Below are positions 6,512 through 55,054 of a stretch of 64,000 nucleotides of DNA, piece after piece. Positions within the stretch are counted from its first letter, which is position 1, and the number at the start of each line of letters is the position of its first letter. The translations under genes were made by a program, and so were the position numbers. The stretch covers positions 11,061 to 75,060 of the forward strand of contig CAVQJU010000006.1 in assembly GCA_963712905.1 (NCBI GenBank). The letters are read 5' to 3'. Origin of the DNA: an uncultured Acidobacteriota bacterium (GTDB lineage Bacteria > Acidobacteriota > Vicinamibacteria > Vicinamibacterales > CAVVIG01). Below the pieces are notes generated by a model. That model was not told the origin of the DNA. It searched no databases and was given only the letters and a program-made list of their open reading frames with translations.

Positions 6512-6520
6512 AGCTTCGTG

Positions 6521-35832: not shown

Positions 35833-35902
35833 TTTGCTGTGGGCGTTTTTGTGAGCGCTTGAGATAGTCAGAGCGTGAGAGAGCGTGTAAGAGGGTGACA
35901 CT
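35833..35902 (+). repeat. 70-bp element-end repeat, copy 2 (tRNA core not retained)
   Basis: 67/70 identical to 6168-6237. Confidence 0.9.
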
Positions 35903-35944
35903 TCCCGGTAGCTCTCCGTCGGAATTGCTTCACAAATCCTGGAC

Positions 35945-35975
35945 TTGACATCTGATATATAGCGACACTATATAT
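35945..35975 (+). promoter_or_regulatory. Sigma-70 promoter with PadR operator ATATATAG-N5-CTATATAT
   Basis: TTGACA at 35945-35950; perfect 8-bp inverted repeat over the -10, before padR. Confidence 0.75.
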
Positions 35976-35983
35976 AGGACTCC

Positions 35984-36981: not shown

Positions 36982-37360
36982 CTACGCGGGAAGTCGAAGC
37001 AGCTTGATCAGGTTTCGGACGCGTATGTCACCCGTGTGCTTCTCGAGACTGCTGTGGTCGTTCGCTGGATGATGATCGATCCGGTATACCGCCTTGACCT
37101 CGACGGCCTCTCCAGCAAACTGTCGCAACGCCACTGGGCTCACCTTGTTCAAGAGCACTTCTCCGACCATCCCGACGTGGTCGCGAAGTCGAACCGCGTC
37201 GATCTGCTTCAGCCAGGCGACGATGTGGTTCCAACTGCCAGGCATTGGGGACGCTTTTTTCGAGCAAATCTTCCGATTCGAACGCCTCCAAGAAATCCGC
37301 GACAAGGCTACCGCGTTGAAAGAACACGCGCGCCGGACTTGGCTGATTGCTGTACGAGGT

Positions 37361-37413: not shown

Positions 37414-40123
37414 TTACCGGCTGGCCTGGAGGCTGACTCCGGCACCAGGGCCGCTACCAGGGCCGCTGCCAAGGATGTCACCGGTGGAGACAAGCTTGAC
37501 CCAAAGCGAACCGTTGCCTTTGTAGTACGAGGTGGCGCTGGCCTTGCGCAGCGCATCCAGGCTGCTCCTGCGCCGTACCCGACGATGCGGTGGTGAATCC
37601 CGGCAGCTCGAACATCACCCACGAACCGGCATCCAGTTCCTTCACGTTGATGTTCAAGGTTGGCCTTTCGGTGGTCACCTTGTACTCGGTGCCCGCTCGT
37701 ACGTTGGTTTCACCGTTGGCGGTGAACTCCTTGCCATTGCGGCTGAGAACGACTGGCGGCCCTGACGGTGCAGCGGTACCTCTGATTCGACCACCACCTG
37801 GGGCAATAGCAACGGGAGCAGGTGCAGCAGCACCGGCTCCGCGGGCACCTGCACCAGGACCGGGAGCTCCGGCTCGTGCGGGACCGGCACCAGGACCACC
37901 GGCACCACGACCGCCGCCGCCGCCGAATCCACCGAATCCAACAGCACCGCCACCGCCGCCAACAGTCATGCGCCCGATATCGCCCTTGCACACCGCGGCG
38001 TTCCAGGTGGGCTTGACCTCGCAGGCTTCGTCGATGTCGATTCCAGTGATGTTGACGATGTAGGAATTGGGGACACCGGTGATCGTGCCGTCCCTGTCGT
38101 TGAACACCGAGGTCTTGTAGACCGTATTGCCGTAATCATCGTTGCTCCACCTGTTGTCAATCGGCGGGAAATACACCGGCTTGGCGTTGATGAATTTCGC
38201 GCGCTGCACGGTGTTGTTGGAGCTCATTCCGAAGCTGGTAAACAGCAGGTAGGAGATCGCTCCCGTCTTGCGGGTGGCGTTGTCCTGGTAATTCACGAAG
38301 GTGTTGTTGTCCAGTTCATGGTGGTAGTCGTAGAACTCGTAGCCGCGGATCGGGAAATCCGCGACTGCCGGCTGCGGCAAGCTACGGCCGTACGCCATTT
38401 CCGCCGGCGTCCTGGGGTTGCCGATGTTCTCGGTTTCGCCCACGAACCGCGAGTCAACCACCCGTGACGTAAAGGCGGACTGACCGAAGTTGCCGGACGC
38501 TTGCGTGAAGCCAATTCCGTTATCGGCCATCTTCAGGTTCTTGTAGAGGCGCAACTCACCGCGGGCCCAGATGCCGCTATTGCGGTTCTTGTAGCTGGTG
38601 AAATCCTCGACGACCGACTCCGCTTGAGCGCTGTTCGCGTCAGCGGGATTGACAAGGGCAATATACCCGCCGACGGCGAAATGGCCATCGGCCCTGGGGG
38701 CGCGGTCGCCCATGAAACTGTCAAAGTTCGAATGGGCGACGTTGCCCTTGAACTCGCGGACCTTCGTGCGACGCGGCCAGGTGGCCTTGCTGATCTCCGT
38801 GCCTTCGAACTTACCCGTCGGATGCTCCGGGAAGGCGAACCAGAAACCTGTCGCGTCGGACCCCGCGGCCACGTTGTCGCGGTAGGTGTTGTCCGGATTG
38901 GTGATCCAGAAAGACGACACCGTGTTATCCGAAGGGATCAGGACGTCCTTGGAGTCCTGGCCGGTCGTATTGAAGTTCGTGCCGGCCGTCGCTCCGAACG
39001 GGGCGAGGTTAGTCGGGTCGCAGGGCTTGGACGTATGACACTTGGTCTGGATCGCCAGGTTGCGGATGTACTGGTTGCCGGTCTCGATGCCGTCTTCGAG
39101 GAAGAAGCAGTGACCGACGGTGTTGTAGGTCACATTGTTCTCAACCTGCAGATTGTTCGTGCCATGCACGGTCACGCAGCGGTTGAAGGTGTCGTGGATC
39201 GCGGCGTTCCTGATGTACTGGCCCTTGCCGTCGCCGATCAGATGCCAGTGGATCGGATACCGGGCCAGCGTCAGGTTCTGGCCCATGCGATTGAGCTCGA
39301 CGCCCTCGACGAACATCTTGCTCGCGCCCATCGCCATGATGTGGCCGCCAAAGAACGTCGTGTCCGCGTCAGACGACGCCTGGATCAGGATATTGCGCGA
39401 CAGCATGCCGACTTCGCCGCGTTCATCCACGTCGAAGGTGATCTTGCCGAAGTGCATGTAGTCCAGTTTCTTGTCGAGCGTGATCGCATTGCCACGGATG
39501 GCAGCAATGGTTCGGCGCTCCGCCTGACGGGGATCGAAATCCGTTGACGCGAGGACAATCACGTCGCCGACCCGCCAGCCAGCGGCGTTCAGGACTTCAA
39601 TCGAGTTGCTGCCGGCTGCGGCGGTCCTGGACAGCTTCGTCCAGGAGTTCGTCCGGTTACCGTGCAGGTTCAGGGTTCCACCCATCATCATGATCCCGCG
39701 ATCACTGCGGTCAGTCGTTCCACCCACTCCACTGATGTCTTCGCCTTTGACGTTGTCGGTGAGGGTAATGGTCGCCTTGCGCGTGTGGGGTTTGGCTTCC
39801 GTGCCAATCTCCAACGCCCCGTGCACCATGATCCACTCGGTGGTCAGTTCCAGATCCTTGTTATCCGCGAAGCTGAGCGTGCCGTCGAGCTTGATGCCAT
39901 GCAGCGGCGGCGGACTGACGTCGAGGATGACGTTCATATCCTTTTCAATGGTGACCACGTCGTCTTTGGCGGGCACCTTCTTGTCAGGCCAGGTGGCAGG
40001 ATCAGACCAGCGGCTGGTCGCCGGCGATCCAGCACTCTGAGCCTGAACGACAGCGAATACGCTGACGAGCAGGAATGCCGGCAGGAGCGAAGCAAGAAGG
40101 AACGAGCGATGTTGCGTACTCAC
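37414..40123 (-). CDS. Exported G8-domain beta-helix protein (CEMIP/TMEM2-like), frameshift near 37568
   Basis: GTG 40123 with RBS GGAGG; RWSDPATW, ERGEVGMLSRNI, RYPIHWH, CVTVHGT, GHCFFLEDG; C-terminus SSLDALRKA...LQASR* in shifted frame. Confidence 0.88.
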
Positions 40124-40424
40124 GGAATCAACCCTCCGTACTCGAAGATGACCGAGAACCGCAGCGGCAAAGCGAGCGCAATCCGGCGCCCAGCAAACCT
40201 CGAACCCGAAGAGAATAGCCGATTTGCGAAGATCCCGGGTATGCGACTCCCGCCCGCCCCGGTGCACGGGGTAGATGACCCTTGGGCGTTCTCCGCTTCC
40301 CACGCGAAAGGCTTGGCCGCATCGTTCGCCTTCTGACCGTCGCTGTTTGACGGCGACGATGGCAGCCTGCACAGATCGATCGCACGGTGCAGAAGAACGG
40401 AAGAATCAGGACGGAGGGAACGAG

Positions 40425-40667: not shown

Positions 40668-40797
40668 CGGCTGCTAACCAATCCCGAATCCCCTTTGGGG
40701 GGCGGAGGTCACGCAGCGATAGCCGAGAATCGCGTTTCCACCCTATCGCGAATCCTCTTGGGGACGAATCCTCCCTCGCTTCGCTCGGTCGAATCCC
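40668..40797 (+). repeat. Two degenerate tRNA-Glu 3'-end-like units in tandem plus extra CGAATCC copies
   Basis: CGGCTGCTAACCAATCCCGAATCCCCTTTGGGGGGCG (40668-40704) and ATCGCGAATCCTCTTGGGGACG (40745-40766); both align to the 41592-41656 unit. Confidence 0.7.
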
Positions 40798-40819
40798 AGG
40801 CTAAAATGCTTCGGTCCTG

Positions 40820-41252
40820 ATGGTTGGAGCTGGCTCTCGCGCTCGCCGTCCGTTGCTGGCCTTAGCAGTGGCGGTTGGAATCGCCCTGGCCGCGGCTCCG
40901 ACGCTCGCCCACCATTCCCGCGCGATGTTCGACATGGGCAAGAACATTACGTATCGTGGAGTCGTGGAGGAGTACCGGTGGCAGAACCCCCACAGCCACA
41001 TCGTCGTCAGAGTCGGGGCCGGCGCGGCGGACCGGTCCACGGTGGGGACATGGACCGTCGAGGCCTCGGCTATCAGCGTCATGACCTCCAGCGGGTGGAC
41101 TCCGAGGACGTGCCAAGCCTGGCGATCCGATTACGGTGGTGGCTCATCCGAATATGGCTGGCTCCAACCTCGTGTTGCTCTTTTACGCGATCAAGGCTGA
41201 CGGGACACGGCTCTACCGCGCGGCGCATCAATATGATGGAGAGAAAGATTGA
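40820..41252 (+). CDS. DUF6152 family exported protein, frameshift near 41112
   Basis: AHHSRAMFD...WQNPHSHI / KPGDPITVVAHP. Confidence 0.82.
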
Positions 41253-41591
41253 ACAGACCAACATCCGTGGGTGCGCGGCCGCATTCAGACAACCAAGTGA
41301 ATGGGGACGTTCCCTCGTTCTTCCCGTTCTCAGGCCCCCGCGGAGTTCGTCCGGAGTCTCGGCAGCGCACGCATGTCACTGAATTCCTGGTGCGAGCAGT
41401 ACCGAACTAGAGAGCCATCCGAAGTGATCGGCGATGGCCACGAGCGCCAAGATTACTCCGGCCGAGACTAGAGCTATCCAGTGAGACCGCTTGATCATCC
41501 CTTCCAGCCTTTCTGCTTCGGCTTAGACACCGTCCGCGTGATTTGTCGCCAGCAGGGCGGAAGGCGTCTTCACATCCTACGCCGCGCGCCG

Positions 41592-41656
41592 GTCGGATCG
41601 CCGAATCCCTTGGAAAACCGGCTGGCAATCAATCGCGAATCCACTTGGGGACGCCA
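41592..41656 (+). repeat. 65-bp unit ending in the tRNA-Glu 3' end (CGAATCCACTTGGGGACGCCA)
   Basis: 50/65 ungapped identity to 46595-46659. Confidence 0.85.
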
Positions 41657-41868
41657 CTAAACGTATTCGACCCGCGAGTAGCTTCTCCCCCGTCCCCACT
41701 CCCGAACATGTGTAGTACCCGTCAGCGTGCGGCGTGAAGGTTCGCGCTCAAGCACAATCGGTAAACGCTGCGGCGTTTCTGAGGACTAAGCATCAATTTC
41801 CATAGCGCGGTGTCTAAGGAGCTGAATCGCAGGTAGTCTCGTTTGTTGTCCCACTTCGGAGGTAAGAC

Positions 41869-42684
41869 ATGGGCCGAAAACTGAGCACTCGCCTTTCTGC
41901 GTTTTTGGTCGCAACATCCGTCGCGCGGCTGTTCGCCCAAGGCCCGACGGACCAGAACGCACTAGCATTTGAAGTCGCTTCCATCAAGCCGAACAGCTCC
42001 GATGCCGTCGGCGACGGCGGGCTGGGCTGGGGGCCCGACAGCATCAGGGCACGGAACCAGTCGCCAGCATCCCTGCTCAGGATGGCGTTTGGCGTTCAGG
42101 CTGACCAGATCATCGACACACCAGCATGGGCGGCAACCGAACGCTTCGATATCAGCGCGAAGGTCGCTCCGGGGGTCGTCTTCAATGCGATGACCATGCT
42201 CCAGCCGATGTTGCGCAATCTGCTCGAGGATCGCTTCCGGCTCAAAGTCCATCACGAGACGCGTGAGCGCAACGTGTATCGCCTCGTGCGGCTTCGCGCC
42301 GATCGGCTCGGTCCCAAGCTGGCCTCCGCCGCCGCTAACGCGTGCGCGCCGCCCGTTCAAAAGGACGTCGCGTCCTTGATAGCAGCCGGCAGAGGCTGCT
42401 CGGCCGGTCCGGTGCCGGGAGGGATAAGCGTACACGGCATGCCCATCGCGACGCTCTCAAGTCTGATAGCGCCTTCAGTCGAACGTGTGATCATCGATGC
42501 GACAGGTTTGACTGGCAACTGGGATCTGGACCTCGCCTTTGTCAATCAGGTCCAAGACGCGAACGGCGACGGTCCATCGCTTTTCACCGCGCTCGAAGAA
42601 CAACTCGGACTAAAACTCGAAGCAGCTCGCGCGCCAGTTGACGTGGTCGTGATTGACCGGCTCGAACGCCCGACGACTGATTAG
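41869..42684 (+). CDS. TIGR03435 family (acidobacterial) exported protein
   Basis: FEVASIKP, LLEDRFRLKVH, IDATGLTG, GPSLFTALEEQLGLKLE. Confidence 0.93.
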   Translation: MGRKLSTRLSAFLVATSVARLFAQGPTDQNALAFEVASIKPNSSDAVGDGGLGWGPDSIRARNQSPASLLRMAFGVQADQIIDTPAWAATERFDISAKVAPGVVFNAMTMLQPMLRNLLEDRFRLKVHHETRERNVYRLVRLRADRLGPKLASAAANACAPPVQKDVASLIAAGRGCSAGPVPGGISVHGMPIATLSSLIAPSVERVIIDATGLTGNWDLDLAFVNQVQDANGDGPSLFTALEEQLGLKLEAARAPVDVVVIDRLERPTTD

Positions 42685-42796
42685 CGATCAGTAGTGAGAA
42701 GTCGCGCAGTGTCGACCCAGGTTTCTCGCGAACCCGACCAAAGGGGCCTTTACGCCGTCCGCCGCAGTACCGAACCCGCCACGGTCAGGGGTGCGG

Positions 42797-42814
42797 CCCT
42801 TTTGGGGACGTACC
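42797..42814 (+). repeat. TTGGGGACGTACC unit
   Basis: 13 bp identical to 51821-51833; intergenic. Confidence 0.55.
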
Positions 42815-42833
42815 TCCTTTAGGCCCACGAACG

Positions 42834-43148
42834 ATGCGGCTCACAGTTCGCTGGGTGGGATGGGGCATCATTGGCATGGTCATATTGCTTTGCCTCGTCG
42901 CGACCATCGAAATCTGCTCGTCAACGTACAGGTCCTGGGAATTCATGAATCGAACGGGACGGATTCGTGCAGGCATGACGGAACGTGAAGTGAGGGCCGC
43001 GGCGGGCGTACCGGAGACACTCGTTACCGATCTCGGAAGGCCGACTGATCCGTCTGCGGTGGGGGCGTCGTGCGGAGAAGCAAACGCAACTGCTGCGATG
43101 CTGTATACCCTCGACCATCACGGCTGGCTCGGCGGGCACCTGGTATGA
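42834..43148 (+). CDS. Hypothetical membrane-anchored protein (BamE/SmpA-like motif), probably frameshifted at its end
   Basis: TM then IRAGMTEREVRAAAGVP. Confidence 0.5.
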   Translation: MRLTVRWVGWGIIGMVILLCLVATIEICSSTYRSWEFMNRTGRIRAGMTEREVRAAAGVPETLVTDLGRPTDPSAVGASCGEANATAAMLYTLDHHGWLGGHLV

Positions 43149-43310
43149 CGTCTGGAATCTCCACAGAGGTTGTATGCCTTGACGCGCGGCGCATCGTGGT
43201 CAGCACACATACGCCTGCTCCTCCTAGTGAACGCCAACGGGATCCCCATCGCGCGCTTCGACCACGCGCACGCCTAGGCATATAATCACCCACTCGCCAG
43301 GAGGTTTTAT

Positions 43311-43841
43311 ATGCGCGCTGCGCTCAGGACGGCCGTTCTCCTCGTGTTATCCGGCGTATTTGGTGGTGTTCTGCCCAGCGCCGCCCGCGCCCAGGACGGC
43401 GCACGCCTCGCCGACACCGTCGGCTTCGACATCGCCTGGAATCACGTGGCGCTGAGCGTGCCGAACATCGCGGAGTCGATTGCCTGGTACGAGAAGATGC
43501 TCGGCTTCAAGGGCACCGTGCGCGGCGGTCAGCCGAACCCAAATGCCCGGCAGCTGGTCGCGGACCTCCGTCGCGGGAACGTCACCATCGAGCTGTTTCA
43601 GCTCGCGGACGCCGCCCCGCTGCCCGAATCGCGGAAGAACCCGTCAGAAGACTTCCGGACGCACGGCGTGAAGCACTTCGGCTTCGAGGTGAAAAACCTG
43701 CCCGCTGTCCTCGCGGAGCTGAAAGCCAAGGGCGTCAAGATGGCGTTCGAGATGCGCGACACCCCAACCGAGGCATTTGCGTTCATCAGCGACAACGCCG
43801 GCAACGCGATAGAACTGATCGAGCACAAGCCAGCGCGGTGA
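43311..43841 (+). CDS. Exported VOC/glyoxalase family protein
   Basis: NHVALSV...WYEKMLGF, IELF, KHFGFEV, FISDNAGNAIELIE. Confidence 0.9.
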   Translation: MRAALRTAVLLVLSGVFGGVLPSAARAQDGARLADTVGFDIAWNHVALSVPNIAESIAWYEKMLGFKGTVRGGQPNPNARQLVADLRRGNVTIELFQLADAAPLPESRKNPSEDFRTHGVKHFGFEVKNLPAVLAELKAKGVKMAFEMRDTPTEAFAFISDNAGNAIELIEHKPAR

Positions 43842-43861
43842 ATCGTCCCGAAGTTCTGACC

Positions 43862-44899
43862 TCAACCTGGCCGCGAAATCGCCTGCAGGAATTCGGGATC
43901 GTCCTGCACGTCCTCAAACGCCGACGTCCGAAAATCGTCCGTGAGATCGCGCGGGTCGTGGTCGCGAGCCTCGCGCAGCAGGGCCAGCGTACGCGGACGA
44001 TCGCGGGTGACCTTCCACACCGCGGCCGCGTGCATCAGCCAGGCGTAGCCGTGGTCGCCATGACTGCCGCCACCCGCCGCCAGTTTCGCGTCCAGCACCG
44101 GCAGCGCCAGATCGTACCGGCCGCTCTGGTTCAGATGGTGAGCCAGGTTATGTCGGAACCCGTCCAAGGCACGCGCTGACGATCCGTTCTTTTCGAGCCG
44201 ATCGAGCAGCGACAGTGCCTCCTGGCACTTCACGGTGATGCGCGCCGCGTCGTTCCTCGCCCGCGCCAGTTCAATCTCCCAGGTCAGGATCCGTCCGTGC
44301 AGCCGCGCGGCGCTGTCCGCGTCCGGCTCCTCGTCCGCGATCGCGTGCATCAGGGGAATGCAACGCTCCGCTCGTTCGAAGTCTCCGGCGATGTGCGACG
44401 CATCGAGCGAGATTCCCAGCGCGCAGACACGAAGCTCGACGTTCTCGTTCGTCGGCGTCAGCCGCGCCAGCGCATCCTCGAACGTCGCCACATAGTCCGC
44501 GTATCGTCCGACCGCGCCGTACACGGTCGCAAACTGCACGGACTGGCTGAGAAACTCCAGGCGGATCTCGTCTGGCCCCATCGCCGGTTCGTGCGAACCT
44601 TCAGGCGCCGGATACCGGGGAAACTGCGCCAACAGCCGCGGAGAGTGGCCGGGAAGCCAACGCTCGAAGGCTTCATACACGTCCACGGCCTCTGCCGCAT
44701 GCTCGGTGCAGGCGAGCACGTTTGCGAGAGTCTGATAGGCCCAGGCGGTCTCGGAATCAGACAGCGGTTGCGAGAGGTACCGCCTTAGCAAATCAGCGTA
44801 GTCCGTCAGCAGCGAGTTGTCGTCCCATTGGCGGGTGAACCGTTGGAACTGCTCGCGTACTGTCGCGGCGTCGATCATCACCTCGCATCGTAATACCAC
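43862..44899 (-). CDS. Hypothetical alpha-helical (TPR-like) protein
   Basis: Long open frame with helical repeats, co-oriented downstream of the monooxygenase. Confidence 0.6.
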   Translation of the reverse strand: MVLRCEVMIDAATVREQFQRFTRQWDDNSLLTDYADLLRRYLSQPLSDSETAWAYQTLANVLACTEHAAEAVDVYEAFERWLPGHSPRLLAQFPRYPAPEGSHEPAMGPDEIRLEFLSQSVQFATVYGAVGRYADYVATFEDALARLTPTNENVELRVCALGISLDASHIAGDFERAERCIPLMHAIADEEPDADSAARLHGRILTWEIELARARNDAARITVKCQEALSLLDRLEKNGSSARALDGFRHNLAHHLNQSGRYDLALPVLDAKLAAGGGSHGDHGYAWLMHAAAVWKVTRDRPRTLALLREARDHDPRDLTDDFRTSAFEDVQDDPEFLQAISRPG

Positions 44900-44915
44900 C
44901 CGAACGTGCGGTCGT

Positions 44916-46114
44916 TCACCACTCCCCGAGAATCAACCGCCGCGCATTCTCGTCGCTCGGGCCGAATGGACCCTGTCCGGACGAGTCCGGGAACCCGGTC
45001 GGGTCCGCCTCCATGCGTGGCAAGACCTTGGCGCGACGCGCGTCGGCGGCGGGTCCGGCGCTCCAGATGAGCTCCGTCATCCACGACGTGATGTTGTGCA
45101 GCTTGCCCCCGTAGTCGTCGTGTGCGGCCGCATACCGCTCCAGCGCCGCGTTCCAGTCGTCGGTCTCGGCGAGGCAATTCGCAAGCGTCTCCGCGTCGAT
45201 GAGGGTCTTCGAGAGTCCGCATCCCCAGCTCGGATCCGTGGCGCCCGCAGCGTCGCCAATCAAGGCGAGGCCAGGCTTCGCCGGCGACGACACCCACTGT
45301 TCGGCACCTTCGAACTCAGCGAGCGGACCTACCACCTCGATCCGGTCGAACCACGACGACGGCACGTTCGTCGCCCGGCAACCTTCCACGAACGCCGAGA
45401 TCGCGTCCTTGCCGCTGAGTTTTCGGTCGCCCGTGGCTCCCACGTACACAAAGTAGACGCGAGCACGCTCGTTGCCGAGGGGTGCCACGAACGAACCGAA
45501 GCCCGGCGCGAGACACAGGTGGATCCCGTCGTCTGGCGCGCCGACCCCGGTCGCGAGGGCCCCTGCGATGCGGAGATTGTCGGGGTCGCGCCGCACCGTG
45601 AAGCCGCCCCATTCACGCATCCTCGAGAAGCGTCCGTCGGCGCCGATGACGACGCGCGCCGTCACCGAGCGCGTCTGGCCGCCTTCGGCGAAGGTGACCA
45701 TCCATCGGCCATCCTGCTCGGTGATGCCCTGTACGCTCGCGCCACGCTTCATCTCCGCCCCAGCCCGCGCGGCGCCGGAGAGAAGCGCCTGCTGCAGGTC
45801 CGGATGGTAAATGTTGAGGGCCGCTTCGCCGCTCGGCGTGGTCGCAGGAAATGGCCGATGCTGGGTCGGCATGCCCATGAAGTAGGTGTTGAAGAACGGG
45901 ACGATGCGGCCTCCCGCCGCAATCAGGTCGTCGAGGATGCCGAGCCGACGAGCCGCCGCGACGCCCCAGGGCAGGATGTTCTCGCCGCGGACGCGGTCCT
46001 TGAATCTGGCCTCGCGCTCGAGCACGAGTACCCTGCTCGCCCGGTCCGTGCCACCGCCGTGGCGAGCGCAGCGCCACCAATGCCGCCTCCAATCGTGACA
46101 ACGTCGACGTTCAT
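44916..46114 (-). CDS. FAD-dependent monooxygenase, frameshift near 46040
   Basis: IGGGIGG / VLVLERE..RVRGE, VIGADGRFS, LIGDAAG. Confidence 0.88.
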
Positions 46115-46594
46115 GCCCAGCTACCTCCAGACGGGTGACGATGCGGAGCCCGTTTCGCGGCGCCTCTATGGGATTGTCCAGAGTACCGGAATCGATCGCC
46201 GGGTGGCCACGGGGCGTAGATGATTGCCCTGGCGGACGCCATGTCCACATTTGAACACGCAAGCTCGACCATGCCTTCTATGCTTGAGCATCCAATGAAT
46301 CACCCCGACGAACCGCGCGAGTGTGTGCCGCGTATCGATGACCTTGTCGCCGCCCTCAAGGGGAAAGCCTTTGTGCTCAGAGAGCCGGTAACAAGTGACT
46401 TTTTCGATGCCCTCGAGCCCGCATGGCGACGGCCATCTCTCACGTTTCTAGAAGACGCGCGAGCCCTCGCTCCGCTTGCGGCCTGATTCCAGATTAAGTT
46501 ACATCGCCGAGCAGCTTCACTCAGGACAGAGTGCTCGGCCCATTGGGCTGATTCTATCGTCATGCTGATGGACCTCCAGACCAGCTGCCTGGCG

Positions 46595-46659
46595 GTCAGA
46601 TCGCCACATCCCTGGGAAAATAGGTTGGTAACCAACGCCGATTCCCGTTGGGGACGCCA
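46595..46659 (+). repeat. 65-bp unit ending in the tRNA-Glu 3' end (CGATTCCCGTTGGGGACGCCA)
   Basis: Last 17 nt identical to the fragment at 6341-6357; aligns with 41592-41656. Confidence 0.85.
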
Positions 46660-47363
46660 TCGGCATCACATTGACACAGCGATGTTTATGGCAATCGATG
46701 ACGCCGCGGTCGCACGACCGTTCCACCCCGTGTTGTCCCTCTCGTGCCCCGGATGTAGCACCTCCGTTGTGACAAGGGCGAAAGACAGCGCGCCCGTCCG
46801 CCTGTTTGGCTGCGACTGGACGCGGCAGGGCCACAACATCGCGAGCAGGAGCCCCGTCACTTCGAAGCCATCCCCGCATCGCGATTCATCAAAACTCTTC
46901 TGCCCCGCCTGATCGGGGACCGCGGACACACGAGCGCCCCCTCGACCACCTGTAGCGGGCGGAACAACTCTGAATTGATCGGGGGCTCATCGCACGCACG
47001 TCGGGTAATCACCCCACATTGACGCCCCGCGTCGCAGGCGCCGTTGGAAGATCGAACGCCCCTAGCACCGCATCGTCACACGCTGGGAGCCGTCCGGAGA
47101 ACTTCGTCGGGGTTCAACCTGTGCTCGTCAATCGTCCTCCCGGGGCATCTCTAAGCTCTTCTCCCGGGAAGGGCAACGGATTTCCTCCGTAATCCGCAGG
47201 GTCGGAGTCAAGCTGGCTTCGTCAGAAGCCGTTCAGCACCCGTCAGAGTTCGCGTGGGTATGGTGGCTTCGCTTGGGTCAGGTGCGGAGTTGTAACGCGA
47301 GAAGTGGGAGTAGACTGCCTCACGACGCCGAGAGCGGCCAGGTGACACGGTCGCAGAGGGTTC

Positions 47364-47954
47364 ATGGACCAGATCGGTCAAACCGGCGCGGTCAGTCGCT
47401 TGTTGCAGGCCTGGGGCCGCGGCGATCTGCAGGCACGCGACGATCTGGTGCCGGTCGTCTATCGCGAATTGCGGCGCAGAGCGGGCGCGTATCTGCGACG
47501 CGAACGGCAGGATCATACGCTCCAGCCAACGGCGCTCGTCCATGAGGCGTTCATGCGGCTCGTGGGACAGGAGCGCGTCGCCTGGCAGAATCGCGCGCAT
47601 TTCTTCGCGATCGCGTCGCAAACGATGCGCCGCATCCTGGTCGATTACGCGCGGGAACATCAGGCGGCGAAGCGTCCCGGCGCCGGCGTGAAGGTGATGC
47701 TGGACGACCGGATCGGCGCCGCCCAGCCACGCGCGTGCGAGTTCATCGCGCTCGATCAGGCGCTCGTCGAGCTCACGCGCATCGATCCACGGCAAGGTCA
47801 AATTGTCGAGCTCCGCTATTTCGGCGGGCTGTCGGAGCAGGAAGTCGGTGAAGTCCTGTCGATCTCGCGCGCAACCGTCACGCGGGAATGGCAAACCGCT
47901 CGGGCGTGGCTCTATCGCCGGATGACCGCCGGCCCGGCCACGCAGGACGCATGA
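47364..47954 (+). CDS. ECF sigma factor, TIGR02999/kinase-associated (ECF43-like)
   Basis: HTLQPTALVHEA, WQNRAHFF, ELRYFGGL, REWQTARAWL. Confidence 0.93.
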   Translation: MDQIGQTGAVSRLLQAWGRGDLQARDDLVPVVYRELRRRAGAYLRRERQDHTLQPTALVHEAFMRLVGQERVAWQNRAHFFAIASQTMRRILVDYAREHQAAKRPGAGVKVMLDDRIGAAQPRACEFIALDQALVELTRIDPRQGQIVELRYFGGLSEQEVGEVLSISRATVTREWQTARAWLYRRMTAGPATQDA

Positions 47955-50449
47955 CGAACGACGCGGGACGCTGGGATCGTGTGAAGCGGGTGTTTGAGGG
48001 CGCGCTCGAACGGAGCCCGGCCGCGCGGCCGGCGTTTCTGGCTGACGCGTGCGGCGACGATCGATCGTTGAGCGCCGAGGTCGAGTCGTTGCTGCGCGCG
48101 CACGAGCAGGCGGGGAGCTTCGCCGAGCAGCCGGCCGTGGACGAGCTGGCGGGCCGTCCGCTACAGCGCGGCGATCACCTCGGCCCGTACGAAATCGTCG
48201 AGCTGTTGGGCGCCGGCGGGATGGGCGAGGTGTACCGCGCGCGCGACACGAAGCTGGGGCGCGATGTCGCGATCAAGGTCCTGCCGCCGCTGTTGACCAC
48301 GAACGCCGACCGGCTGGCCCGCTTCGAGCGCGAAGGCGGCATGCTTACCGCGCTCAATCATCCGCATCTGCTCACGGTCTTCGACGTCGGAGAAGTCGAT
48401 GGCCAGCCGTATCTGGTCACGGAGTTTGTGGACGACGGCACACTCAAGACATGGGCGTTGGCGGAGAAGCGCACGTGGCGGCAGGCCGTCGAGCTCCTGG
48501 TCGGTGTCGCCGATGGCCTGGCCGCCGCGCACGCCGCGGGCATCGTCCACCGGGACGTCAAGCCGGACAACATCCTCATCTCGAAGCACGGCTACGCCAA
48601 GCTGGCCGATTTCGGCTTGGCGAAGCTGTTCGAGGCTCTCGGCGGCGCGGCGACCGCGCCGACCATGGCGGCCGTGCGCACCCAGCCGGGCATGATCGTG
48701 GGAACGATCGCCTACATGTCGCCCGAGCAGGCCGCCGGCAAACCGGCCGATGCGCGCAGTGACATCTTTGCCTTCGGCGTCGTTCTGTACGAAATGCTGG
48801 CGGGCCGGCAGCCGTTTGTAGGGGCGACCGGGCTTGAGGTGCTGGAACGCGTGCAGCACCACCCGGCCGAGCCGCTCGGCGAGGACATCCCTCCGGCGCT
48901 GCGGCTGGTCGTCGAGAAAACGCTGGAGAAACACCCGGCGGAGCGGTACCAGTCGATGCGCGACATGGTCGTCGATCTTCGAAGGGTGACGCGCACGCTT
49001 TGGGGAGACGGGCACGCCGGCCACGACGCGGTCGCGCTCACGGGTCTCGATCGCGACGGCCGCGCTGGTGGTCGTGCCGGCAAACAAGACCGACCACGAC
49101 AAACGCGCCGGCGTATTCGCTCGCTGGCCGTGCTGCCGCTCCAGAATCTCTCGCGCGATCCGGACCAGGAGTTCTTCTCCGACGGCACGACGGAAGCGTT
49201 GATCTGCAATCTGGTGCAGATCCGCTCCCTCGACATCATCTCGCGCACGTCAGTCATGCGCTACAAGGGCACGACCAAGACGATCCCGGAAATTGGCCGG
49301 GAGCTGAACGTGGACGCCATTGTCGAAGGCTCGGTGCAGCGCGTCAGAGGACGCGTCCGGATTACGGCGCAACTGATTCGCGCATCCACTGACACGCATC
49401 TCTGGGCCGGCGAGTACGAACGCGATGCCGCCGATGTGTTGAAGCTCGAGGCCGAGGTCGCGCAGACGATCGCCCATGAGATTCAAGCGCATCTCACGCC
49501 CGAGGAAGCCGGCCGGCTCGCCAGTACCCGCAGCATCAACCCGAATGCCCGAGAGGCCTACCTGCTCGGGCGCTACCACGCGAACAAAGACAATGAAGCG
49601 GACTACAGGCAAGCGCTCGAGCAGTTCCAGCGCGCCATCCGTCTTCAACCCGACTATGCGGCGGCGTATGCCGGCGTTTCGATGGCAGCGGGCTTACTCC
49701 GGAACCGGGGGTTTACGCAAGACGACGAGGGCGCGCGGGCCGCTACGCTAAAGGCGATCGAACTGGATCCGAGCCTCGGGGAGGCCCACGCAGCCCTCGC
49801 CGCGCTCAAGATCGCGGACTGGGATTGGAAGGGTGCCGAGGCCGAGGGTCGTCGAGCGCTCGAACTGAACTTCGTCAGCGATTCCTACCAGAGTGTCTTG
49901 ACGATCACGGGGCGCCATGCTCAGGCGATTGCCGCGGGCGAGCACGCGGTGAAGGTCGACCCGCTGTCCCCAATCATGCAGGAGAGTTTCGGGATCGTTC
50001 TGTTCTTCGCTCGCAGGTATGACGACGCGCTCGCTCAACTGAAACGCTCGATCGAACTCGAGCCGCGTAGCTACGGGGCCACACTCGTGCTGGGTGTGAC
50101 GTACGAGGCGCTGGGGAAGCCCCAGGAGGCGTTGGCGGTCTTCGACCGCTCCGACGAACTCCGTGAGTCTCCATACATCGCGCGAGCCTACGCAATGCTC
50201 GGGCGGCGCGATGACGCGCTCAGGGTCCTGAACAGCGTCGTCAAGCGAAGGGGCACGTTCGACCTTCAAGAAACGGCTATCGTCTATTTCGCGCTGGGCG
50301 ACAAGGATCGCGGCTTCGAGTGGCTCACCAAGGCGTTCGATCAGCGGTCCGGCTATGTGCCGTGGGCGAAGGTCCAGCCGGCGTTTGATGGCATCCGCGA
50401 CGATCCGCGCTTCAAGGCGCTGGTGGCACGGCTTAAACTTCCGGGCTAG
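47951..50449 (+). CDS. Ser/Thr protein kinase with TolB-N-like and TPR domains
   Basis: GAGGMGEVY, VAIK, HRDVKPDN, DFG, YMSPEQ, SLAVLPLQNL; ATGA overlap with sigma. Confidence 0.93.
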   Translation: MTNDAGRWDRVKRVFEGALERSPAARPAFLADACGDDRSLSAEVESLLRAHEQAGSFAEQPAVDELAGRPLQRGDHLGPYEIVELLGAGGMGEVYRARDTKLGRDVAIKVLPPLLTTNADRLARFEREGGMLTALNHPHLLTVFDVGEVDGQPYLVTEFVDDGTLKTWALAEKRTWRQAVELLVGVADGLAAAHAAGIVHRDVKPDNILISKHGYAKLADFGLAKLFEALGGAATAPTMAAVRTQPGMIVGTIAYMSPEQAAGKPADARSDIFAFGVVLYEMLAGRQPFVGATGLEVLERVQHHPAEPLGEDIPPALRLVVEKTLEKHPAERYQSMRDMVVDLRRVTRTLWGDGHAGHDAVALTGLDRDGRAGGRAGKQDRPRQTRRRIRSLAVLPLQNLSRDPDQEFFSDGTTEALICNLVQIRSLDIISRTSVMRYKGTTKTIPEIGRELNVDAIVEGSVQRVRGRVRITAQLIRASTDTHLWAGEYERDAADVLKLEAEVAQTIAHEIQAHLTPEEAGRLASTRSINPNAREAYLLGRYHANKDNEADYRQALEQFQRAIRLQPDYAAAYAGVSMAAGLLRNRGFTQDDEGARAATLKAIELDPSLGEAHAALAALKIADWDWKGAEAEGRRALELNFVSDSYQSVLTITGRHAQAIAAGEHAVKVDPLSPIMQESFGIVLFFARRYDDALAQLKRSIELEPRSYGATLVLGVTYEALGKPQEALAVFDRSDELRESPYIARAYAMLGRRDDALRVLNSVVKRRGTFDLQETAIVYFALGDKDRGFEWLTKAFDQRSGYVPWAKVQPAFDGIRDDPRFKALVARLKLPG

Positions 50450-50506
50450 ACCTCATCGCCCTTATCGGCGGGCGCAGGATCGGCCCGTCCCGGCGAATCA
50501 CTGAAC

Positions 50507-50672
50507 ATGATGGCTGACTGGGATCGCGTGAAGCAGGTATTTCAGGCCGCGCTCGAATGGAGCCTCGAGACGAGGCCGACGTTTCTCGACGAGACGTGCG
50601 GCGATGATGCCGCACTGCGCGCCGAAGTCGAGTCGTTACTGCGCGGACATGAGCAGGCGGGGAGCTTCGCGC
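50507..50672 (+). pseudogene. Truncated N-terminus of a second kinase paralog
   Basis: WDRVKQVFQAALE...CGDDAALRAEVESLLRGHEQAGSF matches the start of the 47951 kinase, then diverges. Confidence 0.8.
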
Positions 50673-50944
50673 CCGACCTCGTAATATCCCAGCTTTGGCC
50701 TGAACGGATGTCTCCGGCTAACGCCGGTTGGCACGCCGCGTGCTCGTAGCAATTCAGCAAGCCACCGAGCCGGGGACGCCGATGAATCGGGCAGGCGCGT
50801 CGGCAATGCGCGAACCCTGGACGAGCCGATTCTCGTCGAGCCCTTGATGATTCCGCTATCGGTGTCGCGCACGACCGTGATGCGGGCATGGCAGACCTCC
50901 CGCGCATGGCTATATCGGCGCCTGCGCAAGGAGCGCTCCGGAGG

Positions 50945-51523
50945 TCACCGGGGCGAGTAAGCCGTAGTGCTCGGGGACCCGTGCTCGCCGGCGCCCGTGA
51001 CGGCCTGTTTGCTCGCGTTCCGTTTATCGGCAAGCGTGCGGTCTCGTGCCCGGCGGACTTCGCTAATGTTCACGGCTGCCGTCTCGTTAAACTGGAGAAC
51101 GGCCGAAGCCTGGTTCAACTGGAGAAAGATGAGCTGCGCCTCGTAGGCACCGGCCTCGTCCGGACCGTGTCGCAGATGCCACGCTTCGTGAACGATGACC
51201 GAAGCAATCTTCAACAGACACGGGTACTGATCCCAGCGCGGGACGCTTGCGCATCGAAACGTGCGGCTGCGGGTGTACACGAAGACTCGGTCGCCCGTGC
51301 CGTGTTCGTCGTACACGGTCCAGGCTTCGGCACCCGGCGACACCGTCCGAGGCAACGTGGAAATGAGGACAATCGGCAGGTGCGCGTATAGCTGTGGACC
51401 AGCGAGCAGGAGCGCCCTGTCAAGGGCCGCGCGCTCTTCCGCGGGTGTGCTGTCGGCCGCTCGAACGGTTGATGGCACGCACCACGTTCCGACGACAAGG
51501 AACAACCAGGCAACATTCCGCAT
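50945..51523 (-). CDS. Exported protein with HExxH zinc-peptidase-like motif
   Basis: Signal peptide; ASVIVHEAWH...DEAGAY; RBS GGAGG. Confidence 0.65.
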   Translation of the reverse strand: MRNVAWLFLVVGTWCVPSTVRAADSTPAEERAALDRALLLAGPQLYAHLPIVLISTLPRTVSPGAEAWTVYDEHGTGDRVFVYTRSRTFRCASVPRWDQYPCLLKIASVIVHEAWHLRHGPDEAGAYEAQLIFLQLNQASAVLQFNETAAVNISEVRRARDRTLADKRNASKQAVTGAGEHGSPSTTAYSPR

Positions 51524-51813
51524 TGCGTCCCCTCCGGGAGCGCGTTCCGCCAGTCGGAACGCGCTGGGACGTAACGCGGAAAGCGGGAGAGAACTGCCTC
51601 AGTTGATGGGATGGGCGGCTGCTTTTAGAAGAAACTTCTCAGACCAGCAATGCTGAGATGCAGCGCTTCGAGTGGTCCTAGAAGCTCGTCACCGGGGGGC
51701 GCGCCACACGCAGCCGGGTCATCTCGCGGCCGGACGGCGGTCACTCAACACGTCGCGACTCTTCGGGACCAATCCCCACCCCGCGCGAGTGTCAACGACA
51801 AGCTCCGAGCACA

Positions 51814-51910
51814 ACTCCCCTTGGGGACGTACCCGACCGTATCGAGTCGGAATATGCCCGGCAACTGGACCTGATTCAAGCCCCTGAGTATTCAGACCCA
51901 TGGGGGCACC
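51814..51910 (+). repeat. TTGGGGACGTACC unit plus a weaker TTCAGACCCATGGGGGCACC unit
   Basis: 51821-51833 and 51891-51910, intergenic, same strand as the other copies. Confidence 0.5.
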
Positions 51911-51942
51911 GCAGAACCGTTCGGAGTTATGCTGCGAGGCGG

Positions 51943-52452
51943 ATGAGGCACGGCGGCTCAATTGCTTTTCTTGTTGCCGCGGTCCTAGCCGGCTGCGCTC
52001 GACCGATTCGCACGGGGACACTTATCGATCGGTACAACGGAGCGACCTGCATACCGGTGAGATTTGGTCCCGGAATCAAACCTCCAACGCGTACATGGGA
52101 TGACATACTGAAACTGAGGAGTGGTGCCAGCGCACACGTGGTCGGGGCGCAGCTGCCCGGTGGCCGCATCGATGTGGAATACCCTCCGGACGGACAAACA
52201 CGGACCGCGGCGAATGCGGGGGACTACATTTATCCGGCCGACGTCCGTTTCGACCAAACGGCCGACCTTTTGTACGTAAAAGCCAAGGGGGCTCCGGCAG
52301 CCTTTGGCGGACCACAGACATGGCTCTTCGAATACGATTTGCGACACGACGGCAAACCGGACGTGTCCTGGTCGATCCAGACGTGCTACCTCAAGAATGC
52401 CCGGAAACACCGTAAAGTCGGGTGCTGGCTGACGGCTGCAAACGCTGGTTAG
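51943..52452 (+). CDS. Hypothetical lipoprotein
   Basis: Lipobox LAGC; lower GC. Confidence 0.6.
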   Translation: MRHGGSIAFLVAAVLAGCARPIRTGTLIDRYNGATCIPVRFGPGIKPPTRTWDDILKLRSGASAHVVGAQLPGGRIDVEYPPDGQTRTAANAGDYIYPADVRFDQTADLLYVKAKGAPAAFGGPQTWLFEYDLRHDGKPDVSWSIQTCYLKNARKHRKVGCWLTAANAG

Positions 52453-52482
52453 CTGGCTCGTCTTGGAGCCTGGCAGTCTTTA

Positions 52483-52986
52483 TTAGGCTGCTCCGGGCAT
52501 CTGTTTGCAATGGTGGCGAGTGTGCAACGCCGAAAACCTCACGAAGTCTTCAACCGACACCGTACCGAAACCGGTGCTCATGACGTGTTGGCCACTGTCG
52601 GCCCGTCTGCGACATTCCTTATCGAACCTGGCGAGCGCCTCTTCCAGGCGGACGCGCGCCTGAGCCGGGGTGGCCGGTCCGCTGGCAGGGTCCATCGCCT
52701 TGTGGGCCTTCCACCCCTTCGGAAACACGCCCTTCTTCAAGATCCGCTTGAAGTACAGCCTGAGCAGCGGGCGCAGGAAAGCGGGGGGCATCGGGATCGA
52801 CGGAGCCCCAGAAACGATGTTGGCCGCTTCTTCCACGCCACGCGTCACATGCTCCACGACCTGGCTCGGCGACCATTTCCCCGGCGCGCGCGGCGTAGTC
52901 CAGGTCGCCGCTGATCTGTCCGCCGCCGCGAGCAGGTCGATGAAGGCGGCGCGATTGGCCGCAAGCGCGTCATTGACATCAGCCAT
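52483..52986 (-). CDS. DinB family protein
   Basis: GKWSPSQVVEHV...LHTRHHCKQM; RBS GGAGG. Confidence 0.85.
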   Translation of the reverse strand: MADVNDALAANRAAFIDLLAAADRSAATWTTPRAPGKWSPSQVVEHVTRGVEEAANIVSGAPSIPMPPAFLRPLLRLYFKRILKKGVFPKGWKAHKAMDPASGPATPAQARVRLEEALARFDKECRRRADSGQHVMSTGFGTVSVEDFVRFSALHTRHHCKQMPGAA

Positions 52987-53043
52987 GGGGCCTCCAGTGC
53001 GTGAACCGGCAATCGACTGAAATGATCTGCCACCTTCTGTCGC

Positions 53044-53241
53044 TTAGTCTGACTTGGGCCCTCCTCGCGCCTTTCTCCGCATACGAATGAGTTGGGCCGT
53101 CGCCACGGCTCCCATCGCGACCGGGACGAGACTTACTTTTTCGTGGTTCACGACGGCCAGACTAGTCGCGACCACAAGACAGCCAATCGCGACGCTCAGC
53201 AAGACGACGCCGATACGACTGCCCTGGTTCGGCTGGCTCAT
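53044..53241 (-). CDS. Small two-TM protein
   Basis: MSQPNQGSRIGVVLLSVAIG...; hydrophobic hairpin with basic tail. Confidence 0.5.
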   Translation of the reverse strand: MSQPNQGSRIGVVLLSVAIGCLVVATSLAVVNHEKVSLVPVAMGAVATAQLIRMRRKARGGPKSD

Positions 53242-53325
53242 ACGATCCCCATGCGGCTTATTCAGCTCGCCCCTCACCCTGAGCCGCTTTGCCGGGTGAT
53301 TTCGCATTGCCAGGTAAGGAGACAC

Positions 53326-53439
53326 GTGAGCACAAAGATCATGAAGCGTGACTGGTTCGAGATTCTTGTAATCGGCCTCGAGATCGCCATCATCCTCGCC
53401 GCTGCCGCCCTGGTGTACGCGGTGTTCCAGGCCAACTAG
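53326..53439 (+). CDS. Small single-TM protein
   Basis: RBS AAGGAG + GTG; KRDWFEILVIGLEIAIILAAAALVYAVF. Confidence 0.5.
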   Translation: MSTKIMKRDWFEILVIGLEIAIILAAAALVYAVFQAN

Positions 53440-53511
53440 TTCTCCTCGCTTTTCGTGGCGACCCTCGATAGCCAGCCGCCGCACCCCTCCCCGTCGAAAC
53501 GCCAAGGGCGG

Positions 53512-53818
53512 CTAGCGCAGCTGAAACGGCGGCGTATCGGGTCTGAGCCAGGCCCACGCGCGGCCAAGATTCATGAACACCTTGACCTCGAACGGGAGAC
53601 CTTGCGACCGAACCAGCTGGCCGAACGTCCGTGCGATGGCGAACGTGATCGGCTGCCGTCACGTCCGTGAAGTCGATGAGCGCGTCGGTGCAGTTCTCGT
53701 ACTGTGGCTCCCGGAGCCACGCCAGCATGGCGCTCATCCGCTCGCGTTGCGTGGTCACGCCCTGGCCGCGAATGTATAACAGACCGATGTCCGCGTAGAT
53801 GTCGTACCCGAGCGGCAT
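53512..53818 (-). pseudogene. Internally deleted inverted paralog of the 54619 STAS/SEC14-like gene
   Basis: Matches both ends of 54619-55020 but lacks about 33 codons in the middle and shifts frame near 53655. Confidence 0.85.
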
Positions 53819-54391
53819 CCCCGTAGCATAAATCAGGACGCAAGACACCGAAGTTGCGAAGCGGATCGGGCGGCTGAAGTTCTCGGTCCAGGGCCGACGT
53901 ATCAATTCGACGCCTTCTCGTACCTGGCCGTCAGGATCCAGTACGTCGAATCGTCGGCGATCTCGGACAGGGCTCCCCGGCAGGCCAATGTTCTTCCAGG
54001 TCCCTTCGAGCGCCGGATCCATGACGTCCTTGTCCCCGGTCGCGCGTTGCGCAGCCGTACTCGTGCTGTGCTGAATAAGCCGGTCGCTCCGCAGATAATC
54101 AGGCAGAGCCAATCCCGATGTCGAATCTCGATTCAACACGCGAAGCATTCAAGCGGCCGTTCGATGTCGAGACGTCCGCCTTGGATCGGTTGGTGAGCGG
54201 CTGCACTGGTCCCTGATTCGGTTCCCGATCCCACTCGAGTCGTAAGCCCATCCATCGACCTGAGCAGTGTGAACGCAATTTCTGTCCGGCTCTCCTTATG
54301 TACGGTATCGTACAGACAGGCCTGAGAGCCCCCGCCGGGACAGCACATCGCGTCCTGGTTGCTCGCCCTCATACCCATATGGGAGCGAGCC

Positions 54392-54550
54392 ATGCCGGAA
54401 TCAGAAGATCGTTCCAGCCACGACGCGGCCTGTCCGAAGTGCCCGCCCGGCGCGTCCAAGCCTGTCGTCATCGTTGAACGATTCGGCGTCAAAACGTTCT
54501 TCTGCGCCGAGTGTGAGCACGTCTGGGAAGAACGGTCCGGGCAAAGATAG
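54392..54550 (+). CDS. Small zinc-ribbon protein
   Basis: CPKC...FFCAECEHVW; RBS GGGAG. Confidence 0.6.
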   Translation: MPESEDRSSHDAACPKCPPGASKPVVIVERFGVKTFFCAECEHVWEERSGQR

Positions 54551-54618
54551 CGCCCGCCGCTCTTCTCCTGTCGGCCCCGCGAGCCCGCGGGAACTGCGCC
54601 GTGATTTATGCTATCGGC

Positions 54619-55020
54619 ATGTCGCTCGGGTTCGACATCTACGAGGACATCGGCCTCCTCTACATTCGTGGCCAGGGCGAGATCACGCAAAGCCAGCGGA
54701 TGAACGCCATGCTGGCGTGGCTCCGCGATCCAAAGTACGAGGGCTGCACCGACGCGCTCATCGACCTGGCCGACGTGAAGACGACGCCAAAGGTCGGCGA
54801 AATGCGTGAACTGATCGCGATGCTCAAGCAGCAGATGCCGGCCCGGGGCCCGCGACGGCTGGCCGTGGTCACGTCAAAGCCGATCACGTTCATCGTCGCG
54901 CGGACGTTCGAGCATCTGGTCAGGTCGCGAGGCCTCAGGTTCGAAGTCAAGGTGTTCATGAACCTTGGCCGGGCCTGGGCCTGGCTCAGGCCCGACGCGC
55001 CGCCGTTTCAGCTGCGCTAG
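54619..55020 (+). CDS. STAS/SEC14 (SpoIIAA-like) domain protein
   Basis: LIDLADV...RLAVVT...VKVF...AWAWL; TATGCT -10 just before ATG suggests a leaderless start. Confidence 0.7.
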   Translation: MSLGFDIYEDIGLLYIRGQGEITQSQRMNAMLAWLRDPKYEGCTDALIDLADVKTTPKVGEMRELIAMLKQQMPARGPRRLAVVTSKPITFIVARTFEHLVRSRGLRFEVKVFMNLGRAWAWLRPDAPPFQLR

Positions 55021-55054
55021 CCGCTCGCGGAATCCAGCCGGCCCAGTCCCCAGC

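Follow-up and report, generated by a model that had tools for sequence, protein, structure and literature searches.

Composite islands of the staphylococcal cassette chromosome (SCC) are built by large serine recombinases that insert at the 3' end of one gene, rlmH/orfX, and consist of tandem "cassettes" bounded by short direct repeats, some of which (pseudo-SCC) lack a recombinase. For cis-mobilizable elements (CIMEs), the original work on which was in Streptococcus, mobilisation has been shown experimentally. In Dehalococcoides, tandem islands downstream of a single small-RNA gene, ssrA, are bounded by co-oriented direct repeats of the 3' end of that gene, all within 100 kb; a conserved motif just 5' of each repeat mismatches the gene, insertion is at the T-loop, a reverse-strand serine recombinase adjoins attL, and 15 islands without an integration module were proposed to be cis-mobilizable elements (McMurdie et al., 2011; PMC3146451). 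The islands of Prochlorococcus adjoin tRNA genes and hold partial tRNA copies, elements stand side by side with a partial tRNA between them, new elements are modeled to push older ones deeper, leaving degenerate remnants, and the tycheposons carry tyrosine recombinases together with replication genes (bioRxiv 10.1101/2020.12.28.424599). Here we analyze a window of 64,000 nucleotides from an uncultured soil acidobacterium (assembly GCA_963712905.1, hereafter G000; contig C6, positions 11061-75060), and conclude that its segment 40668-51910 is probably the distal part of a tandem accretion array that is anchored on a tRNA-Glu(UUC) gene and was built by site-specific recombinases. Such an array explains a 60-kb variable region of this genome. 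Other G labels denote genomes of relatives and three-digit L labels denote loci; coordinates without a contig or locus prefix are those of the window.

The array is marked by a 9-mer core, TTGGGGACG, which a scan of the whole window places at 6346, 37245, 40758, 41645, 42802, 46648 and 51821, all seven on the forward strand and none on the reverse strand. Dinucleotide-preserving shuffles of the window (n=100) contained 0.66 copies on average and three at most, and 0 of 100 reached seven. Across both strands of the 6.33-Mb genome there are 38 copies, nine of them on C6 (all forward) and 29 elsewhere; with a background of ~0.15 copies per strand per 64 kb, seven on one strand correspond to a Poisson p of ~3e-10. 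The positions, the strand bias and the expectation of less than one copy per strand that had been given in a first-pass annotation of this DNA are thus borne out by the counts and shuffles, and the repeats are co-oriented and confined to one region. All seven sites, not six as it had counted, lie outside genes, at least those with Pfam support. A further core copy on the contig, at C6:75658, lacks the T-arm context and is probably a chance occurrence. The sites, including one degenerate copy (S3a), are:

S1, 6312-6357, forward strand: 43-nt 3' part of tRNA-Glu(UUC) that spans anticodon loop through discriminator (6312-6354), then CCA
S2, 37215-37254, forward strand: decayed fragment of the tRNA-Glu 3' end; core, 37245-37253
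S3a, 40685-40703, forward strand: degenerate core copy CGAATCCCCTTTGGGGGGCG (nhmmer E 0.24)
S3, 40749-40766, forward strand: T-loop/acceptor block, 16/18 identical to the tRNA
S4, 41579-41656, forward strand: full unit of arm family L1, consisting of a leader of ~55 nt, CGAATCCACTTGGGGACG and CCA (nhmmer 68.5 bits)
S5, 42797-42810, forward strand: short core CCCTTTTGGGGACG with a TACC continuation; block of 14 nt that contains an additional T
S6, 46584-46659, forward strand: full L1 unit, consisting of a leader, CGATTCCCGTTGGGGACG and CCA (nhmmer 74.7 bits)
S7, 51816-51829, forward strand: short core TCCCCTTGGGGACG followed by TACC, with 13/14 nt of the tRNA kept

Such a pattern is extremely unlikely to be due to chance clustering or to faulty assembly, for instance to chimeras formed at short repeats of a metagenome bin. 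The genome is indeed a bin (88% complete, 3% contamination) and one core copy on the contig is probably fortuitous, but seven copies are never reached in the shuffles, the same junctions are found in independent assemblies (G003, at 100% identity over 67 nt; G002, G004 and G016), and cores of 9-22 nt would be too short to mislead the assembly of a 191-kb contig.

The core is the acceptor end of the tRNA-Glu(UUC) of this genus. A search of 20 relatives with a 22-mer, followed by ARAGORN, recovered intact tRNA-Glu(UUC) genes with the 3' end ...CGGGTTCGAATCCCGTTGGGGACGCCA, and the aligned genes of G001-G005 and G009 terminate in ...CCCTTTCAAGGCCAAAACACGGGTTCGAATCCCGTTGGGGACG. S1 is identical to the genus tRNA from CCCTTTCAAGG to GGGGACG except for a single mismatch, and the tRNA sequence is also largely kept in the blocks at 41636 in S4 (16/18 nt plus CCA) and at 46639 in S6 (17/18 nt plus CCA). 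Of the tRNA, the sites within 40668-51910 retain the T-loop/acceptor block only. The derivation of the repeats from a tRNA-Glu 3' end, proposed earlier from the window alone, is therefore confirmed by the tRNA genes of the relatives.

A second 43-nt copy of the 3' part of the tRNA, which starts in the anticodon loop like 6312-6354, is located 3.4 kb before the window (C6:7665-7707). In G003, an intact tRNA-Glu gene occupies exactly the position of S1 and is followed by sequence colinear with 6312-34052 of the window (92-98% identity). Given that this intact tRNA runs straight into the segment 6312-34052, the 9.66 kb between the two fragments of G000 represents an insertion bounded by them; S1 is the displaced attachment (att) fragment, and at least one further insertion lies to the left. 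The anchor itself is deduced from the sister genome G003, because neither the tRNA nor its upstream region is in the G000 assembly; accordingly, the predicted intact upstream tRNA-Glu gene on the forward strand is found in G003 and not in the genome for which it was predicted. Intact tRNA-Glu genes also head arrays in G016, G136, G014, G108 and G073. At the other end of the variable region, the backbone common to G001 resumes at 56836 (G001:C1:58631), and G000 and G001 carry unrelated content from there back to the tRNA fragments; no att remnant was found in the 500 nt before 56836.

Reassortment of flanking sequences at the cores is directly observed. At five of the seven window sites (S1, S2, S4, S6 and S7), a comparison shows conservation of one flank and substitution of the other, with the switch exactly at the core, and presence/absence differences between relatives break at these same repeats. 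The left flank of S2 (37188-37254) is 100% identical over 67 nt to G003:C25 6235-6301, beyond which G003 contains 3.05 kb of additional sequence that reaches to a second core, TGGGGACGC, and then matches the window from 37246 onward at 87% identity. A second locus of G000, C10:703585-704403, combines through one unit sequences that flank two different sites of the window: C10:703585-703776 corresponds to the left flank of S4 (41437-41628; 93% identity), where the right flanks differ, and C10:703793-704403 to the right flank of S7 (51821-52430; 95% identity), where the left flanks differ. This S7 flank also has 83% identity to G003:C25 3843-3968, again with differing left flanks. In G002:C3, homology to 46648-46841 begins exactly at the core of S6, and the leaders differ. 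Gain and loss with breakpoints at the repeats had been suggested as the test of serial site-specific insertion, and at these five sites this is what the comparison of relatives yields.

Such arrays are widespread in the family. G003:C25 has its own array of five co-oriented cores in 18 kb, with none on the other strand, and G001:C1 has three cores. Of 118 family genomes, 57 contain the 14-mer TCCCGTTGGGGACG, compared with two hits in total for a reversed control pattern, and the copies are co-oriented and clustered in 15 of the 16 contigs that contain at least two of them (in the exception, G085:C15, the copies are 1.1 Mb apart).

In the relatives, recombinases of two families are linked to the core. 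The first is a tyrosine integrase of 387 aa in G039, which is convergent with tRNA-Glu and overlaps the 3' end of the tRNA. Its relatives are found in G010, G009 (decayed), G108 (frameshifted) and G001:C4 (frameshifted, upstream of the tRNA); a tyrosine integrase adjoins tRNA-Glu in G039, G010, G009 and G108, and also in six named loci of Acidobacteriota metagenome-assembled genomes. Particularly informative is a 3.7-kb element (L072) that comprises tRNA-Glu, the integrase (PF00589, 82 bits), a PIN-domain gene, small open reading frames (ORFs), and then a full L1 unit (nhmmer 72 bits) and the core; the small ORFs of this element gave no significant family match, with a single weak DUF2281 hit below the cut-off. 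Since the element ends in a full unit plus core, the 65-nt leader-containing unit is the right-end arm of a family of tyrosine-integrase elements. A second arm family, L2, is common to G003:C25 and G136. The other recombinase is a large serine recombinase (PF07508, PF13408), which is convergent with the core at a distance of 65-550 nt in at least 15 family genomes, with intact frames of 525-657 aa; in G001:C1, every module begins with a frameshifted or partial, i.e., decayed, serine recombinase. The intact tRNA-Glu that adjoins a serine recombinase in G024 has TACC in place of CCA, the tRNA of G016 has TACT, and the TACC continuation of S5 is common to arms adjoining serine recombinases in relatives.

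We propose that recombinases using the tRNA 3' end as the attachment core would have inserted elements serially, each insertion leaving a co-oriented copy of the core and shifting the older modules downstream, and that the two families seen on the same core in relatives, the 387-aa tyrosine integrase and the large serine recombinase, both convergent with it, could have provided the enzymes. Because the insertions would be serial and at a shared core, each junction should consist of the right arm of one module, the core, and the left arm of the next. Under this scheme, the L1 units at 41645 and 46648 would be right arms of the tyrosine-integrase element family, whereas the TACC cores (42802, 51821) are similar to left arms of elements with a serine recombinase. 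The window modules (0.9-5.2 kb) hold ordinary accessory genes and no recombinase, and thereby resemble cis-mobilizable elements. The order of events and the enzyme behind each junction are inferred in this conditional sense, as would be any continuing movement of the modules, in contrast to the observed origin of the core, array structure, reassortment at the cores and linkage of recombinases to the core in relatives.

The repeats might instead be functional RNA or regulatory elements located 5' of genes (a leader, terminator, promoter or tRNA-like processing signal) rather than scars of insertion. They are intergenic and co-oriented, and a forward-strand gene follows five of the seven; the first-pass annotation had put the next gene on the same strand at every repeat, but at 6346 and 37245 it is on the reverse strand. 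Nevertheless, this explanation is highly improbable. No Rfam family was matched in the window at gathering thresholds, ARAGORN reported no tRNA in it, and the consensus fold of six units (-6.3 kcal/mol, 0 of 10 pairs covarying) provides no supported structure. The distance from core to start codon ranges from 32 to 716 nt, a profile scan with the full unit (nhmmer) detects only four full copies in 6.3 Mb (two on C6 and two on C10), the flanks reassort at the core, and recombinase genes abut the core in relatives.

The ungapped alignment of 41592-41656 with 46595-46659 has 50 identities in 65 positions, exactly as annotated earlier. What the units at 40668 and 40745 have in common is the T-arm/acceptor tail (17/21) and ~10 nt before it; over the 44-nt leader, part of which they had been said to share, there are 21/44 matches, compared with 19.7 on average and 27 at most in the background. 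A relaxed scan with the 22-mer, allowing up to six mismatches, was dominated by noise and discarded. The GC content of the array region is 60-65%, compared with 66.7% for the genome.

The linked tyrosine integrase that had been predicted 5' of the first base of the window was not detected in this assembly: an integrase beside the attachment site is lacking on C6 and present in relatives for both recombinase families. Pfam searches of part of the window ORFs gave no recombinase domain, and tblastn with both recombinase families against C6 returned only tails encoded within the tRNA; the modules are considered integrase-less because these and the six-frame and remnant searches described below all came back empty on C6. 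The absence of recombinases raises the question whether the modules ever had one. According to an integron-like capture scenario, they never did: cassettes with an arm plus core serving as attC would have been excised as circles and inserted in trans at tRNA-Glu or at internal cores. This scenario draws on the fact that no full recombinase gene is present in the arrays of G000 (C6) and G003 (C25) or in the first modules after the tRNA in G014 and G016, on unrelated cargo ending in the same arm families L1 and L2, on an internal indel between two cores far from the tRNA (S2 compared with G003), and on module sizes of 0.9-5.2 kb, which are near cassette size. We regard it as unlikely. No cognate recombinase was found in G000, and in G003, G016, G014 and G136 there is no close homolog of the tyrosine integrase (only hits of 26-38% identity); the cargo is of mixed strands, there is no folded site, and neither an empty site nor an excision circle was seen. 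Furthermore, short recombinase tail remnants are present beside some cores, in G136 and G016 only, and together with the decayed serine recombinases that begin the G001 modules they indicate that decay of autonomous elements does occur.

A broader version of this idea is that the tRNA-Glu 3' end is the docking site of a gene-capture platform, in which integrase-less modules of one to a few genes with a conserved 60-90-nt arm plus core are excised, shuffled and re-inserted in trans by the two unrelated recombinase families, the enzymes being borne by transient elements. We put this forward as a tentative possibility, with the balance of probability clearly on the other side. If true, the platform would be a functional analog of the integron built from tRNA-derived sites, and modules mobile in trans would amount to a natural cassette system outside integrons and would provide two recombinase-att pairs, one serine and one tyrosine, with a defined core of 14-22 nt.

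Several observations weigh against the accretion array anchored on tRNA-Glu(UUC). First, the G000 assembly contains tRNA-Glu(CUC) but tRNA-Glu(UUC) was not found in it, and for the 20 kb that precede the tRNA in G003 no match exists in any part of G000; the gene is probably just unassembled, given that the assembly is 88% complete. Second, six-frame searches of C6 for PF00589 (at E <= 0.001), PF07508 and PF00239 gave nothing, blastn and tblastn against integrase-bearing loci showed no integrase remnants beside the cores of G000, and in the G003:C25 array neither a tyrosine nor a serine recombinase nor a remnant was found. Third, among the genomes compared, no junction is available for S5 and only a weak one for S3, the right flank of which resembles, over ~30 nt, the flank of the intact tRNA-Glu of G004.

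Fourth, several cargo genes have copies elsewhere that are not delimited by cores. The VOC gene has a 97% identical copy in G002:C8 in which homology stops at the gene ends, not at cores; in G003:C16, a 94% identical copy of the TIGR03435 gene lacks a core and is flanked by unrelated sequence; and for DinB and TPR, too, near-identical genes exist in other places, where homology again stops at the gene ends, with no core nearby. Since cargo homology ends at gene ends rather than at cores, some other process also moves genes here. Fifth, the C10 locus with units is not near tRNA-Glu: relative to G003:C17, it is a 4.1-kb insertion (L002 9542-13625) that contains two units, the B gene and a 641-aa ORF and is flanked by a 7-bp CGGTGYG direct repeat, not by the tRNA core. 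This flanking repeat gives it the appearance of an array segment that was translocated.

The cargo copies in other genomes, considered as evidence on module borders, proved uninformative with respect to the cores, homology ending at gene ends. Separately, four gene-sized patches of the window (43267-43839, 41786-42707, 52463-53021 and 35904-37145) are 91-98% identical to copies from different species or genera in G002:C8, G003:C16, G016:C4 and G074:C11, respectively, which is above the backbone identity to those genomes, with unrelated flanks; the matching segment extends from ~45-85 nt ahead of the start codon to the stop codon or slightly beyond it. On C10, the second unit (L002 10487-10525; G000:C10:704486-704524) ends in TTGGGGGATTTGAACCCGC, which resembles the reverse complement of the T-arm of another tRNA and may be the remnant of a different att site.

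The cargo and associated features of the window are:

Truncated second copy of the arm upstream of S1, 35833-35898, forward strand: holds the direct-repeat motif TGTGGGCGTTTTTGTG(G/A)GCGC
Module M, 35904-37145, forward strand: PadR regulator (35984-36322) and 205-aa ORF (36364-36981)
S2-S3 cargo, 37478-40372, reverse strand: 964-aa protein with G8 and CEMIP beta-helix domains
DUF6152 gene, 40820-41250, forward strand: frameshifted by a 1-nt insertion near 41128
TIGR03435/DUF3738 protein, 41869-42684, forward strand: 186 bits for TIGR03435, equivalent to the DUF3738 match
VOC/glyoxalase, 43311-43841, forward strand: Pfam assignment
TPR protein, 43862-44899, reverse strand: Pfam assignment
FAD monooxygenase, 44916-46262, reverse strand: Pfam assignment
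ECF sigma factor (TIGR02999), 47364-47954, forward strand
Ser/Thr kinase with TPR (Pkinase-TPR), 47888-50449, forward strand
80-aa copy of the kinase N-terminus, 50507-50749, forward strand
Cargo B, 51943-52452, forward strand: 169-aa ORF, no family match

The DUF6152, TIGR03435, VOC, TPR, monooxygenase and ECF-kinase identities previously assigned to the cargo all stand, with the qualification that the DUF6152 gene (module 40758-41645) is split into two overlapping frames (41100-41140). Compared with an intact copy in G113 (90% identity), it contains 1 extra nt, which points to either a pseudogene or an error of sequencing. Module M is conserved at 98% identity in G003 and G004 and at 97% in G074, a member of another genus, and in G004 the intact tRNA-Glu is located 420 nt upstream of it. 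Paralogs of the 964-aa G8/CEMIP protein (87-95%) are present in many genomes, with no cores nearby. The part of the kinase gene that encodes the N-terminus (47971-48123) is repeated at 50518-50670 with 80% identity, in the 80-aa ORF just 3' of the gene, and looks like a remnant of a second ECF-kinase module. Beyond the last core there is an inverted repeat pair (53508-53842 and 54595-54995; ~335-400 nt, 85% identity).

The arm copy at 35833-35898 and the arm that precedes the G001:C1 fragment are 97% identical. The direct-repeat motif TGTGGGCG(T/C)TTTTGTG(G/A)GCGC occurs at 6170-6195, 6493-6515 and 35833-35855 of the window and at 7831-7852 of L001 (G000:C6), on both sides of the 43-nt tRNA fragments and ~130 nt away from them; it may be an arm-type protein-binding site. 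Directly 5' of the 6312 fragment, at the right end of the 9.66-kb insertion, the window encodes a HigB-like toxin and helix-turn-helix antitoxin pair (5479-6075). An IS21-family element is located at ~5280-7525 of L001, 130 nt to the left of the first tRNA-Glu fragment; its IstA has rve and Mu-transposase C-terminal domains, and the next ORF (~5417-6192, reverse strand) is, by eye, a putative istB-like gene. A copy of this element, 91% identical, resides in the G001:C1 array (52932-55191). Elsewhere in the genome, C14:302226-303227 (forward strand) is a frameshifted homolog of the tRNA-Glu-type tyrosine integrase that adjoins tRNA-Ala, and the only large serine recombinase of G000 (C20:246179-247831, reverse strand; 551 aa) is 29% identical to the tRNA-Glu-linked family and is followed, by eye, by a tRNA-like fragment. 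None of 23 listed sequencing runs contained more than 0.14 of the sampled words, and no conclusion on habitat or strain is drawn from them.

The literature searches made here found no paper on tRNA-Glu arrays in Acidobacteriota. Among the known systems, integrons are similar in that small modules, ordered and co-oriented, alternate with recombination sites, and the first-pass annotation had described the locus as integron-like. This wording does not hold. An IntI-type gene is lacking (C6 has no PF00589 match at E <= 0.001), as are attI and Pc, and the tyrosine integrase of the relatives scores 65 bits on the integron-integrase model, compared with a cut-off of 265 bits. In place of hairpin attC sites, the core is a tRNA 3' end, and it is the sequence of the units that is conserved, six of them showing no compensatory pairs; the cargo is of mixed strands, the TPR, FAD monooxygenase and DinB genes being on the reverse strand.

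With regard to tycheposons as described in the cited preprint, none of their hallmark genes was named in Pfam scans of part of the window ORFs, which were not aimed at them, and serine recombinases are also involved here. There is also a similarity to CIMEs: the window modules have cores and arms on both sides, lack recombination and transfer genes, and stand in tandem with related elements, although any mobility of theirs, as opposed to that of CIMEs, would be putative. The likeness to SCC is one of analogy; the target is protein-coding there and a tRNA gene here, and host and cargo differ.

A close counterpart is the ssrA arrays of Dehalococcoides, which have the same overall structure as the G000 array, including integrase-less members. 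Tandem arrays of this kind are thus already described and the process is known, so that the present locus is a clear example of it in a little-studied phylum. What is notable here is the small size of the integrase-free modules, the use of one core by two recombinase families, and the spread across an uncultured family, in which tRNA-Glu is a family-wide hotspot for both. Compared with Dehalococcoides, the target is tRNA-Glu rather than the transfer-messenger RNA and the phylum is Acidobacteriota, tyrosine and large serine recombinases share the core, the arrays of G000 and G003 are without any integration module, and the modules are as small as a single gene (0.9 kb).

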